Source: Leptonemataceae bacterium
GTDB taxonomy: Bacteria; Spirochaetota; Leptospiria; Leptospirales; Leptonemataceae
Reading direction: 5' to 3'
Assembly: GCA_965227295.1 (NCBI GenBank)
Contig: OZ245742.1
Coordinates: forward strand, 4,896,001 to 4,960,000
Length of the DNA stretch: 64,000 bases
In this document: piece after piece, positions 44,708-47,940 of the stretch
How positions within the stretch are numbered: the stretch's first letter is position 1
How the letters are laid out: the number at the start of each line of letters is the position of its first letter
Translations under genes and position numbers: made by a program
The notes under the pieces: model-generated
The model's database searches: none
Told to the model about the DNA's origin: nothing
Seen by the model: the letters and a program-made list of their open reading frames with translations, nothing else

Positions 44708-45745
44708 TTGCAATTCGATTCTCGTTCCGTGTCCCGCCCGAGCACCGGCCTCATCATCGGCAAGTTCCTGCCGCCGCACCAGGGCCACCTGCATCTCATC
44801 GACACCGCCCGCGCGCAGGTCGACCACCTAACCGTGCTTGTGTGTACATTAGCCCGAGAACCCATCCCCGGGCACCTGCGCCACGCATGGCTCACGGAAA
44901 TCTATAAGGACGCGCTGAACGTCACGATCGTCCACAATCCCGACGAAAACCCCCAGGAACCGCACGAACATCCGGACTTCTGGAACATCTGGAAAACCAG
45001 CATCGAACGGCATCACGCGCAGCCCATCGACAAACTTTTCTCCAGCGAACATTACGGTTTCGAACTGGCAAAACACCTGAACTGCCGGCATGTACCGGTG
45101 GACATCGAGCGCAGCACCGTTACGATTTCCGGCACGGCCGTCCGCCGGCATCCCGGGGCGTTGTGGGACTTTATTCCGGAAGTCGTGCGACCGTACTTTC
45201 TCCGGCGCGTCGTCATCACCGGCTCCGAGAGCACCGGCAAAAGCACGCTGGCCCGGCGCCTCGCCGAACACTTCAATACGCACCAGGTCCACGAGTACGC
45301 CCGCGAGTATCTCGAAGGCCTGGGCGTGCACGTGGACGATCTCAAACCGGAGCACATTCCCGACATCGCTCGCGGCCACACGGCCCTGGAGGATCATCTC
45401 GCCGCGACGGCCAACCGCGTTTTGTTCCTCGATACGGATCTCATCGTTACGAAGATATACGCCGAACATTACTTCGGCGAGTGTCCGGAGTTCATCAAAG
45501 CGGAAGCCCGCGCGCGTCGGTATGATCTGCACTTGTTGTTATCACCGGACGTCCCCTGGGTCGAGGACTCCCTGCGCAACCTGGCCGACGAACGCGACGT
45601 GATTCACGCAAAGGTCACGGCGGAACTCGAAAATCATGACTGCAACGTGCGCGTGATTTCCGGCGATTGGGAGGAACGCTTCGCGACGGCCGTACGACAC
45701 GTCGATGATCTGCTGATGCAACCGATGGCCGGCGTCGAACTCTAA
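44708..45745 (+). CDS. nadR: NadR-like NMN adenylyltransferase / ribosylnicotinamide kinase (no HTH)
   Basis: GKFLPPHQGH nucleotidyltransferase motif, SGTAVR, P-loop GSESTGKST, DTD, PDVPWVEDSLR. Confidence 0.85.
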   Translation: MQFDSRSVSRPSTGLIIGKFLPPHQGHLHLIDTARAQVDHLTVLVCTLAREPIPGHLRHAWLTEIYKDALNVTIVHNPDENPQEPHEHPDFWNIWKTSIERHHAQPIDKLFSSEHYGFELAKHLNCRHVPVDIERSTVTISGTAVRRHPGALWDFIPEVVRPYFLRRVVITGSESTGKSTLARRLAEHFNTHQVHEYAREYLEGLGVHVDDLKPEHIPDIARGHTALEDHLAATANRVLFLDTDLIVTKIYAEHYFGECPEFIKAEARARRYDLHLLLSPDVPWVEDSLRNLADERDVIHAKVTAELENHDCNVRVISGDWEERFATAVRHVDDLLMQPMAGVEL

Positions 45746-45808
45746 GCCGCGAACCCGCACCCGCTCCGCCCCGCGGATAGAGCGGGGCTCCGGGAGCTTG
45801 CTGGATCT

Positions 45809-46120
45809 TTACGAAGAAGACGCCGTTCCGGTCCGCCATACCACGTTCCCCGGCATCACCTCCGCGCGTCAGTTGGAACCAGCTGTACCCAAAAAAGTCT
45901 TAATCCAGACTGGCCTTAACTTACACCACGATTCGGGGCATCGCTCGAACGAATGAAACGTTCCGGTAGCTCAAGAGCTGCGGTTCGTAACGGTTGCCGC
46001 GAGTAACATAAAGTAGGTTGCACAACCGTGAAGGGCCTTTTTTGGCTACGGCTGAGCGGGAGTTGTGGTGATTCGTTTTGCAAAGATTGTCCGCATCGAC
46101 CCGGACGTCGGTTTGTGACT
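45809..46120 (+). ncRNA. Candidate structured RNA / repeat, copy 1
   Basis: Degenerate direct repeat of 46139-46449 (period ~330 nt) with several conserved stems; G-U pairs favour the + strand. Confidence 0.55.
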
Positions 46121-46138
46121 CAGCGATCGGAACGTTTC

Positions 46139-46449
46139 TTACGGCGAAGACGCCGTTCCGGTGCGCCTTACCACATTCCCCGGCATGACCTCCGTTCATC
46201 TGCTGGAACCAGCCGTACCCAAAAAAGTCTTAATGCAGACTGACCGCCACTTACACCACGATTCGGGGCGTGCTCGAACGAATCAAACCCTCCGGTAGTC
46301 CAGGAGCTGCGGTTCGCGGCGGTGGCCGCGAGACACATAAGGTAAGTTGCGCAATGGTGAAGGGATTGATTTGGCTACGGCGAAGCGGGAGTTGTGGTAT
46401 GTCGTTTTGTTAAGAATGCTGCGTTCGACCCGGACGTCGGTTTGCGACT
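46139..46449 (+). ncRNA. Candidate structured RNA / repeat, copy 2
   Basis: Shares GAAGACGCCGTTCCGGT, GTACCCAAAAAAGTCTTAAT, ACTTACACCACGATTCGGGGC, AGCGGGAGTTGTGGT and TCGACCCGGACGTCGGTTTG with copy 1. Confidence 0.55.
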
Positions 46450-46506
46450 TTGCTAGCGCCCATTAATTTACTGGCACTCCCGCTTCGAGTCGCGCAGGCT
46501 GCCCCG

Positions 46507-47940
46507 GTGAAATCTCTGGCGAACAACGACGCCGAACGCCTGCTTCAGGAGCGACGCTGCTTTGCCCTGCATACCACGCACTTCGTAAATCAGTTCCGCA
46601 AGTATCGCCTCTACTATCGCGCCGGGGAACGCAGGGCCCTGTGCGCGGCGCCGGCCGTACTCGTCGTGCGACCGGAGTTCGCCGGCGGGTTCCAGTCGCG
46701 GTCCTGTATCGCCGGCGAGGAACCGTTCGGCCTACTGGATTCGGAAATCGCCGTAAAAATACAAATCGAAACGGAAAGCGCCGTCGTCCCCGCCGCGAAT
46801 CTGAACGAGTTGCTGCTGCGCGGCGAAGAGCTGGTCTTTTATAATGATCGCGAAGGCTGCTTCGACGCCGCGGACTTCGCCGCAGTCGAAACGACGCACG
46901 GCGTTTCGGCGCAGGCGATCTTCGACAAACTCGTCGAGAAACTCTATCTCTATCGCAACGGGGTACTCAACAGCAAAAAGCTCACCGAGATTCAAAAGAA
47001 CGGCCTGCAATGGATCGAGCCCGAGTTTTACGGTGAGGCCGGCCAGGCCGCGGCCCAAAGGATCACTGAGATACTGTTAAGCGGGGTGCGCCCCGAGAAC
47101 CCCGTAAACCGTTTGTATCCGCGGTCGGCGGGATTGTTCAACTTCGACAAAGGCGGAGTCAACTACACGCCGAACCTCGGTCGCGGGGAGCACAACGTCT
47201 TCTTTGAGTACTTCATCGGCAATCGCTACGGACGTTTCATGCCCTACTCGTTCCTCGAAGTTACCGGAGACGCACGGCTCTCCATGGAACTCTATCGCGA
47301 ATTGAGCGAGGGCGGTGAGATCCTGGATGCCAACGGACGACTGCATTCTACGACGGGCCTCAAAGGCGTGCAGCACTTCGACGCCATTGAACAGCATCCG
47401 GAGCTGGATGCCGAAGCAAAGGCTCGCCTCACCGCCGACGTGAAGAACCTGCTGTCCGGGGCGCGGCTCCTGGGTGTCGAAGATGCACGTAAGGAACTCG
47501 GCTACGATCGCCGACGCATTGAAGAAGACCTGGAGCATCTGCCGGCGGACTTCCGGCCCCGCACCTACGAAGAGGTGGAGGCCTTTCTGAATCAACGGCC
47601 CGGCGATGCCAACGGCGCCGCGGAGTTCGAGCAGTTTCTCGCCTACTACCAGGAATCCCACATGCACCACGAAATCGGCAGCGAGGCCGTCAAGAATCGC
47701 GGCATCGTCCTCTGCGAGGCGGAGCCGGCCGGCGACGTGTTGCTCTTGATTACGGACATCCCGTACGTCTCCGCCCCGTACTATCGTCTGCTGCTGGATT
47801 TTTTTCGCCGGCGTTTTCCCGGCGCGAACGTGCGCCTGGCCTTCGCCTACGTCGAACCCACGCCGCGCAACGTCACTCGCTACGCCCATCCCATCGTGCA
47901 CGCCCTGCAAATGATGGCGAAGCTCCGGGCCCAGCAGTGA
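46507..47940 (+). CDS. Hypothetical protein (~477 aa), no recognised family
   Basis: Long ORF with genome-typical codon usage; start uncertain (GTG 46507 or TTG 46450). Confidence 0.75.
   Translation: MKSLANNDAERLLQERRCFALHTTHFVNQFRKYRLYYRAGERRALCAAPAVLVVRPEFAGGFQSRSCIAGEEPFGLLDSEIAVKIQIETESAVVPAANLNELLLRGEELVFYNDREGCFDAADFAAVETTHGVSAQAIFDKLVEKLYLYRNGVLNSKKLTEIQKNGLQWIEPEFYGEAGQAAAQRITEILLSGVRPENPVNRLYPRSAGLFNFDKGGVNYTPNLGRGEHNVFFEYFIGNRYGRFMPYSFLEVTGDARLSMELYRELSEGGEILDANGRLHSTTGLKGVQHFDAIEQHPELDAEAKARLTADVKNLLSGARLLGVEDARKELGYDRRRIEEDLEHLPADFRPRTYEEVEAFLNQRPGDANGAAEFEQFLAYYQESHMHHEIGSEAVKNRGIVLCEAEPAGDVLLLITDIPYVSAPYYRLLLDFFRRRFPGANVRLAFAYVEPTPRNVTRYAHPIVHALQMMAKLRAQQ

Follow-up and report, generated by a model that had tools for sequence, protein, structure and literature searches.

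What fills the spacer of ~760 nt (if the next gene starts at GTG 46508) behind the nadR-like gene of a Leptonemataceae bacterium? The window analysed here is a 64,000-nt stretch of that genome (assembly GCA_965227295.1, contig OZ245742.1, positions 4,896,001 to 4,960,000, forward strand), and an initial annotation had described the spacer as a tandem pair of non-coding elements with conserved pairing, a candidate for a novel large structured RNA. The tandem pair of ~330-nt direct copies was confirmed (Table 1): a repeat search returned copies at 45809-46130 and 46139-46460 with a period of 329/330 and segments that are 87% and 79% identical, and the mean column identity of copy 1 and copy 2 was 88% in a MAFFT alignment and 81.8% over model columns. 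It also held that no known RNA family is present, as Rfam gave no match at E<=10 within the repeat (the sole match at that threshold in 45000-47500 scored 10.8 bits, lay outside the repeat and is due to chance) and no match at gathering score in the whole 64-kb window. We conclude that the locus is probably a cluster of a lineage-specific, non-coding, mosaic family of intergenic repeats, which acts at the DNA level and resembles repetitive extragenic palindromic (REP) sequences and bacterial interspersed mosaic elements (BIMEs), and not a structured-RNA gene.

The genome is a single complete contig of 5.94 Mb, and the repeat is widely dispersed in it. BLAST of unit 1 against its own genome gave 148 matches with 71-100% identity, mostly adjacent to one another with the ~330-nt period, and iterated nhmmer recovered 310 pieces amounting to 71,335 nt, or ~1.2% of the genome. 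When pieces within 500 nt were grouped, they formed 116 intergenic loci of half a unit to ~7 units each, with a total span of 74.5 kb; these are confined to spacers and overlap little with called genes. Among the 130 near-full units, pairwise identity averaged 79% and reached at most 96%. As the initial annotation had noted for the two copies, no open reading frame (ORF) is common to them: there are ~3 stops per unit in all six frames over the 130 units, and no 3-base periodicity. No single frame is open in more than 7/130 units, the three codon phases vary equally, and the spacing of units is not kept to multiples of 3. A decayed tandem duplication of a protein-coding segment, to which a 329-330-nt period near 110 codons might point, can be given almost no weight against stops in six frames, missing codon periodicity, spacing that is not in threes and intergenic loci.

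Preferred start and end points of the arrays reveal two modules, A (unit position 1 to ~150) and B (~160 to 328), which were found as A alone, B alone, B-A, (AB)n and B(AB)nA. Module B contains a 78-nt core at unit positions ~228-305, and module A holds three segments resembling the reverse complement of this core (inverted repeats I2 and I3; in the window, I3 relates 45880-45897 to 46037-46054 with 89% complementarity). The long-range stems of the initial annotation are these inverted core-like segments. Consensus A and the reverse complement of consensus B share partial similarity only. The ~329-nt composite is ordered as a partial inverted core (A), a ~135-nt centre and a direct core (B), with an optional module L at the junctions, so that A and B alternate and are linked either by the centre or by the junction with or without L. 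Array starts scatter over unit ~120-176 and ends over ~131-200. Two smaller optional inserts were also observed in module A, one of ~66 nt with two small hairpins after GACGCCG, which explains units starting at model 18, and one a ~38-nt hairpin (GGCCACG..CGTGGCC) near unit position 60. Places that bear inserts are at genome 976497-976892, 1949856-1950375, 4671192-4671516 and 1800922-1801417, showing a modularity nested within the repeat.

We further examined how far the family extends beyond this genome. BLAST of the unit against 41 genomes, including this one, gave matches in 3, and the full unit was found here only, while two congeners matched at the core only, with 73-85% identity. A sequence-only core model, R1, detected at least 113 copies in this genome; the two congeners had 26 and 15, and the 39 other genomes of the family (20 other genera) had none. 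The congener cores are ~78 nt long, occur singly or as inverted pairs, and lie in spacers, mostly convergent, in either orientation. Across the genus the core blocks keep their spacing (GYGG-N5-CGTTTTG-N15-TCGRCCCGG), and two congener copies carry a hairpin insert at one same point in the core. In these copies (L028:1441-1546 and L029:1505-1625, which are orthologous congener loci), the hairpin lies between the GGAG and TGCGG blocks and a second, partial inverted core adjoins; the orthologous spacer in the present genome contains a 977-nt array. An exact-pattern scan of 185,579 species genomes, one per species, returned 19 matches, 12 of which lie in two records of metagenome-assembled genomes ("Leptospirales bacterium" and "bacterium") and all pass the core hidden Markov model (HMM); the other 7 are singles in unrelated taxa and fail it. 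The metagenome scan gave 12 exact matches and no real core by the HMM, with L083 marginal (E 6e-4, pattern itself only), and plasmid and phage collections gave no match.

Given that the structured-RNA proposal depended on pairing conserved beyond chance, we tested modules A and B for RNA structure, and found that across the 130 near-full units the helices pair just as independent columns predict. Relative to dinucleotide shuffles, the plus-strand folds of the two copies had z values of -0.15 and +0.32, and the minus-strand folds +1.47 and -0.09. Candidate stacks, defined as antiparallel with at least 5 pairs and at least 80% canonical, numbered 86 for the plus and 48 for the minus strand, and in all of them the canonical fraction was within 0.008 of the independent-column expectation. 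The helix TACCACR/TGTGGTR (unit 31-37/255-261) showed 0.710 against an expected 0.714, with double changes in 1/910; the helix ACTTAC/GTAAGT (unit 110-116/204-210) showed 0.828 against 0.832, with 0/903; and the terminal GACG/CGTC and CCGG/CCGG pairs showed double changes in 0/480 and 0/519, respectively. By mutual information, the top 60 pairs were almost all 4-15 nt apart and mostly non-canonical; these pairs are linked variants in short blocks (haplotype linkage), not helices. No long-range Watson-Crick covariation was observed in spite of 126 polymorphic columns, and mismatch types match neither strand consistently (A-C at unit 12-299, G-T at 11-300). A weak pairing excess was seen at two local palindromes, unit 62-67/72-77 and 176-182/187-193, and was reached by 8/500 and 7/500 shuffles. 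For the cross-species core, RNAalifold gave -1.18 kcal/mol and no consensus structure, and two core mini-hairpins had 79.3% of cells paired across species versus 77.7% in shuffles; 10/500 shuffles attained their covariation score, and a single pair had changes on both sides. The apparent conserved pairing is conserved sequence and not evidence for a folded RNA.

The differences between the two window copies that had been taken as compensatory sample alleles whose assortment across the family is independent; unit column 37, for instance, can be A, G or T, while the T facing it at 255 never varies. One of the stems put forward, CAGTTGG-AA-CCAGCTG, has a 2-nt loop and cannot close as drawn, and short inverted repeats with such a 2-nt centre would resemble double-stranded DNA sites more than RNA hairpins. 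The initial annotation had itself listed many dispersed copies and a lack of significant covariation among homologues as grounds against its multi-junction RNA under structural selection; we found 310 dispersed pieces at 116 loci and no significant covariation among homologues, and the structured-RNA claim therefore falls on both.

Real compensatory change is confined to module L, a 73-nt GC-rich hairpin that forms the optional third module. In the window copy, its inner stem pairs GCCCCGC (45768-45774) with GCGGGGC (45782-45788). There are 51 L copies in the genome (another example is L008:1168-1239). No more than 100 nt separates 46 of them from an array, and L invariably points the same way as its array, at whose 5' end or internal B-to-A junctions it sits. 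Among 33 distinct copies, 3 stem pairs show compensatory changes, and the pairing is 0.957 canonical versus 0.909 expected, with 31/585 double-change cells. Because the same procedure detects covariation in L, the null result for A and B is informative. L lies 1-25 nt past a co-oriented stop codon in 12/27 of the copies at or beyond the array 5' side. BLAST found no match to L in the congeners, a search whose power is low at such length. Among the L mismatches, C-A (~12 cells) exceed G-T (2), a bias which, if an RNA matters, may fit the strand opposite to the array orientation and may equally be a lineage effect.

The genomic context of the loci differed from expectation. Spacers with a locus comprise 55 convergent, 52 tandem and 9 divergent ones versus 22/71/23 expected (chi-square p 2e-14), and ~7% of all convergent spacers contain a locus. 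Arrays lie close to gene 3' ends, at a median distance of 16 nt, and further from gene 5' ends (median 129 nt). Between tandem genes, 29 arrays run in the direction of the flanking genes and 23 against it, without any orientation rule. A leader or cis-regulator role is disfavoured because of this missing rule, and a tandem cis-regulator of the gene downstream of nadR, as had been suggested, is unlikely given that the loci lie mainly at gene 3' ends. Genes with arrays on both sides are ordinary, namely a major facilitator superfamily (MFS) transporter, a lipid A acyltransferase-like gene, a ferritin-like gene and a cyclase.

It might still be that each unit or B-A pair is transcribed and acts as RNA, as a multicopy regulatory or 3'-untranslated-region element working through primary sequence, a few invariant helices and L. 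Such a role would agree with the long invariant blocks with few private mutations, with a core conserved across a genus whose proteins are ~60% identical, with the compensatory changes in L and its frequent position just past a stop codon, with optional hairpin inserts at fixed points, as in the expansion segments of structured RNAs, and with the weak pairing excess in the two local palindromes and the two core mini-hairpins. We nevertheless regard it as unlikely, since on neither strand do folds exceed shuffles in stability, the polymorphic columns lack long-range covariation, the core has no consensus structure across species, arrays run either way with respect to the genes beside them (29:23), as congener cores do, and the mismatches fit neither strand. 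Moreover, no sigma-70-like promoter was found in the unit, and terminator-like sites are no commoner than in shuffles. A sigma-54-like GG-N10-GC in the core was rejected as its spacing varies in the congeners. The well-conserved GGAACC-N16-GTCTTA at unit 67-94 (e.g. window 45875-45902) was also observed; this stretch, with a GGAAC-N16-GTC at unit 67-91, may resemble the -35/-10 promoter pattern of extracytoplasmic function (ECF) sigma factors.

The locus behind nadR also shows how the family behaves in evolution. The orthologue of the downstream gene abuts nadR in both congeners, and as neither has a spacer there, the L copy and two-unit spacer are a gain in this lineage between formerly abutting genes. 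Some other sites are old: three congener core loci have flanks common to both congeners, and one such flank corresponds to the gene at genome 3003184-3004260 here, followed by an array at 3004358-3005334. For the majority of congener core sites, this genome has no unit. Neighbouring units share 85.1% identity versus 79.2% between loci, and the closest relative lies at another locus for 86/130 units; unit 2 of the window, for instance, has its best matches at other loci in the units at 508185, 2837225 and 2836896 (~0.88 each). Variation is made up of 5,424 shared-allele cells versus 484 private cells; 126/327 columns are polymorphic, 47 of them having at least three common alleles, and linkage among the polymorphic columns decays within ~10 nt. 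This pattern suggests a repeat population that would be continually scrambled by short-tract gene conversion or recombination while its core is constrained. Private changes have an uneven distribution (index of dispersion 1.66) and spare the core blocks (unit 286-296, for example, has none), which points to purifying constraint on these blocks; the core is conserved between congeners though NadR is only ~60% identical.

The NadR-like protein matches Pfam AAA_28 (E 2.8e-39) and CTP_transf_like (E 2.4e-4), and its orthologues in the two congeners have 60-61% identity. A Pfam search with the product of the downstream gene found no family. The mechanical ORF of this gene, 46450-47940, has a TTG start at 46450 that falls within repeat unit 2, and its true start is likely GTG 46508, since the congener orthologues, compared by eye, have a similar N-terminus directly after nadR.

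Table 1. Features of the spacer behind nadR and its flanking genes (window coordinates unless marked as genome).
Feature	Position	Strand	Remarks
NadR-like gene	44708..45745	+	AAA_28 and cytidylyltransferase-like N-terminus; stop codon ends at 45745
Module L, window copy	45748..45811	+	begins 2 nt past the nadR stop; outer right arm short of 9 nt
Repeat unit 1	45809..46137	+	module A ~45809-45958, module B ~45968-46137; nhmmer match genome 4941809-4942137, model 1-329
Inverted-core-like part of module A, unit 1	45818..45898	+	GACG..CCGG; CCACA.TCCCC; CAGCYGTACCCAAAAAAG; resembles the core reverse complement
78-nt core of unit 1	46038..46115	+	GGCTACGG..GCGGGAG.TGTGG-N5-CGTTTTG-N15-TCGACCCGGACG; core model R1 67.2 bits, genome 4942038-4942115
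Repeat unit 2	46138..46458	+	A then B; ~82% identity to unit 1; nhmmer match genome 4942140-4942457
78-nt core of unit 2	46367..46444	+	core model R1 63.9 bits, genome 4942367-4942444
Short inverted core fragment	46476..46487	+	ACTCCCGCTTCG; just past the array; inverted repeat I4, 12 nt, 100% complementary to 46381-46392
Downstream gene	46508..47940	+	family not recognised; likely start GTG 46508

How might such a family arise as a repeat acting at the DNA level? Its building block is the 78-nt core, which in the genus is present as single or paired intergenic copies, and in this genome a ~329-nt composite has expanded to ~116 loci in head-to-tail arrays, apparently tolerated at gene 3' ends. 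We propose that copies spread into new spacers by some mobilising or recombination activity, and that exchange between copies, by unequal recombination as well as short-tract gene conversion, lengthens and scrambles the arrays. As a motif that is conserved without being palindromic, the core is a putative protein recognition site, a role that would fit because its conservation has fixed spacing and no structure. L and any transcription of the arrays would affect neighbouring transcripts as a by-product only, as REP hairpins do.

Several observations weigh against this proposal. Selection on the L hairpin and its stop-adjacent position would suit a role at the transcript level. About 200/327 columns are >85% conserved with private mutations rare, which exceeds what is expected of simple junk DNA, and each copy could have a function, including one as RNA. 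The gene contexts derive from crude gene calls (codon-usage-scored ORFs, 4,685 genes). The orientation of arrays relative to replication is biased 73:43 (p 0.007), with replication direction taken from the skew (minimum ~1.16 Mb, maximum ~4.08 Mb), and this bias is unexplained. Finally, the mobiliser is missing among the transposases sought: Y1/RAYT (PF01797; RAYT, REP-associated tyrosine transposase) had no match in this genome or the two congeners while control genomes matched, TnpB (PF07282) was not found in this genome, and Tn3 transposase (PF01526) was not found in the three genomes, these being the only families searched; neither were target-site duplications or terminal inverted repeats seen, and the ends are fuzzy. 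Separately, the strand bias of genes is weak, with 53.7% on the leading strand.

The last of these points bear equally on a classical non-autonomous transposon, either a miniature transposable element with inverted repeats (MITE) or a palindrome-associated IS200/IS605 derivative, which a transposase encoded elsewhere would move by cut and paste and which would form arrays by inserting beside its own end. The initial annotation had allowed for a non-autonomous mobile element, and this option, taken broadly as a non-autonomous repeat, comes close to our findings. In its favour are the many dispersed copies, the new insertion at nadR relative to the congeners, the imperfect inverted repeat at unit ends (GACG..CCGG / CCGG.CGTC), units that often match distant loci best, and the replication orientation bias, as for elements that transpose as single strands. 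We consider it quite unlikely, given the missing enzymes (Y1, TnpB and Tn3 here, Y1 and Tn3 in the congeners also), the lack of sharp ends, and the lack of near-identical copies (maximum 96%) such as a recent burst would leave; moreover, some sites are common with the congeners. When 12 single B-A elements were aligned with their flanks, homology faded and no duplication was seen, with no close empty site for comparison. The only transposase seen at an array belongs to an rve-type insertion sequence (IS) of ~1,155 nt with an HTH_29/rve_3 transposase, present in 6 copies at 94-100% identity, one of which sits in the T-run at the B core start of the array at genome 1034861-1035931. As a mobiliser this IS was rejected, being itself inserted into that array while the remaining 5 copies are found 16-58 kb away from arrays. 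An IS200/IS605 origin, considered from TTAC at the unit start and the hairpins, was discarded as no Y1 transposase or TnpB was found, and so were Tn3-like ends, a likeness to Tn3-family inverted repeats at unit 127-166 (GGGG..GAACGAA.AAAAC..CAAG) and unit 1-43, as no Tn3 transposase was found and arrays end elsewhere.

A further explanation is that the arrays are host-beneficial DNA sites kept at each locus, which bind a genus-specific protein for nucleoid organisation, topology or the insulation of convergent genes. The non-palindromic core blocks with fixed spacing and without rare variants are consistent with this, as are the short inverted repeats CTGG-AA-CCAG and GCTC-AA-GAGC, which have 2-nt centres and resemble dimer binding sites, the enrichment in convergent spacers and the sites common to species. 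It is rather unlikely, as copy number differs ~tenfold between congeners, most congener core sites have no unit here, and array length varies without pattern from half to ~7 units; we know of no binding protein. This explanation overlaps the reading as a DNA-level repeat family that we prefer, the sole difference being who benefits.

Among the known systems, REP sequences and BIMEs are the closest in behaviour. REPs are GC-rich stem-loops that occur singly or in BIME clusters, are biased to convergent genes in Pseudomonas syringae, affect mRNA stability and bind IHF, Pol I and gyrase, and RAYTs are proposed as their mobilisers (PMC3184786); REPINs are defined as inverted REP doublets that exploit RAYTs (PMC3337134, PMC3116915). 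The family resembles the REP/BIME elements of enterobacteria and pseudomonads in being high-copy, GC-rich, non-coding, strictly intergenic and single or clustered, in its bias to convergent spacers and gene 3' ends, which is seen here and as a tendency in the congener cores, in part in its modules A and B, which alternate with few linker types (BIME clusters have a motif in alternating orientation, and A resembles an inverted core in three segments only), and in hairpin modules with compensatory change, here L. It differs in that the unit is ~329 nt versus ~35-40 nt, that it has no sequence relation to REP, that no RAYT was found, and that its basic motif, the 78-nt core, is not a GC-rich palindrome, which only the accessory L is. 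Like REPIN-RAYT systems, in which a single-copy Y1 transposase mobilises the doublets, the family has a B-A junction that joins a direct core to a partial inverted one in tail-to-tail fashion, as do the congener pairs (L028, L029), and its sequences are maintained as a population within a lineage, some sites being common to species; unlike in those systems, RAYT was not found in the three genomes, the two arms resemble each other only in part, and pairing between them is not kept up. Because the core is non-palindromic and RAYT was not found in three genomes, the family is not a member of the REP/REPIN families.

Other modular repeats share single traits. Like mycobacterial interspersed repetitive units (MIRUs), the family occupies many intergenic loci with arrays arranged head to tail, some of them separating genes of the same operon (nadR here). 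MIRUs are 40-100 nt long and have small reading frames in phase with neighbouring genes, unlike the present ~329-nt units, whose frames all contain stops and which occur in both orientations. Neisserial intergenic mosaic elements (NIMEs) and pneumococcal BOX elements are also modular intergenic arrays of few blocks in which the number of internal modules is variable; their blocks are 20-150 nt and their sequences unrelated to ours. NIMEs are tied to pilin loci (PMC3184786), unlike the present arrays, for which no pilin link was seen and which flank ordinary genes. An open-access literature search gave no description of such a family, which is not proof of its being unpublished.

Taken together, these results correct an attractive candidate for a novel large structured RNA to conserved repeat sequence, and they show that a pairwise comparison of two repeat copies can yield false compensatory changes that mimic covariation. 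In practical terms, such arrays break short-read assemblies; contigs from two DNA runs break inside the repeats, and their ~320-350-nt joints are indistinguishable from those of other loci. Insertion of an array can also mislead start-codon calls, as with 46450 versus 46508 here. Going further, the 78-nt core may be the site of a genus-specific protein that copies or recombines it, which would make the family a long-lived intragenomic replicator, independent of RAYT and of any known transposase, that escaped control in this genome to build arrays of ~329-nt units at ~116 gene ends, and L-capped read-through might then modulate the 3' ends of ~7% of convergent pairs; we offer this as a tentative and rather unlikely idea. 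The family is notable for having no recognisable mobilising enzyme of the kinds searched (Y1, TnpB, Tn3), for making up ~1.2% of a complete Leptospirales genome with a unit unusually large for a bacterial intergenic repeat, and for a core that is constrained across a genus whose proteins are ~60% identical.

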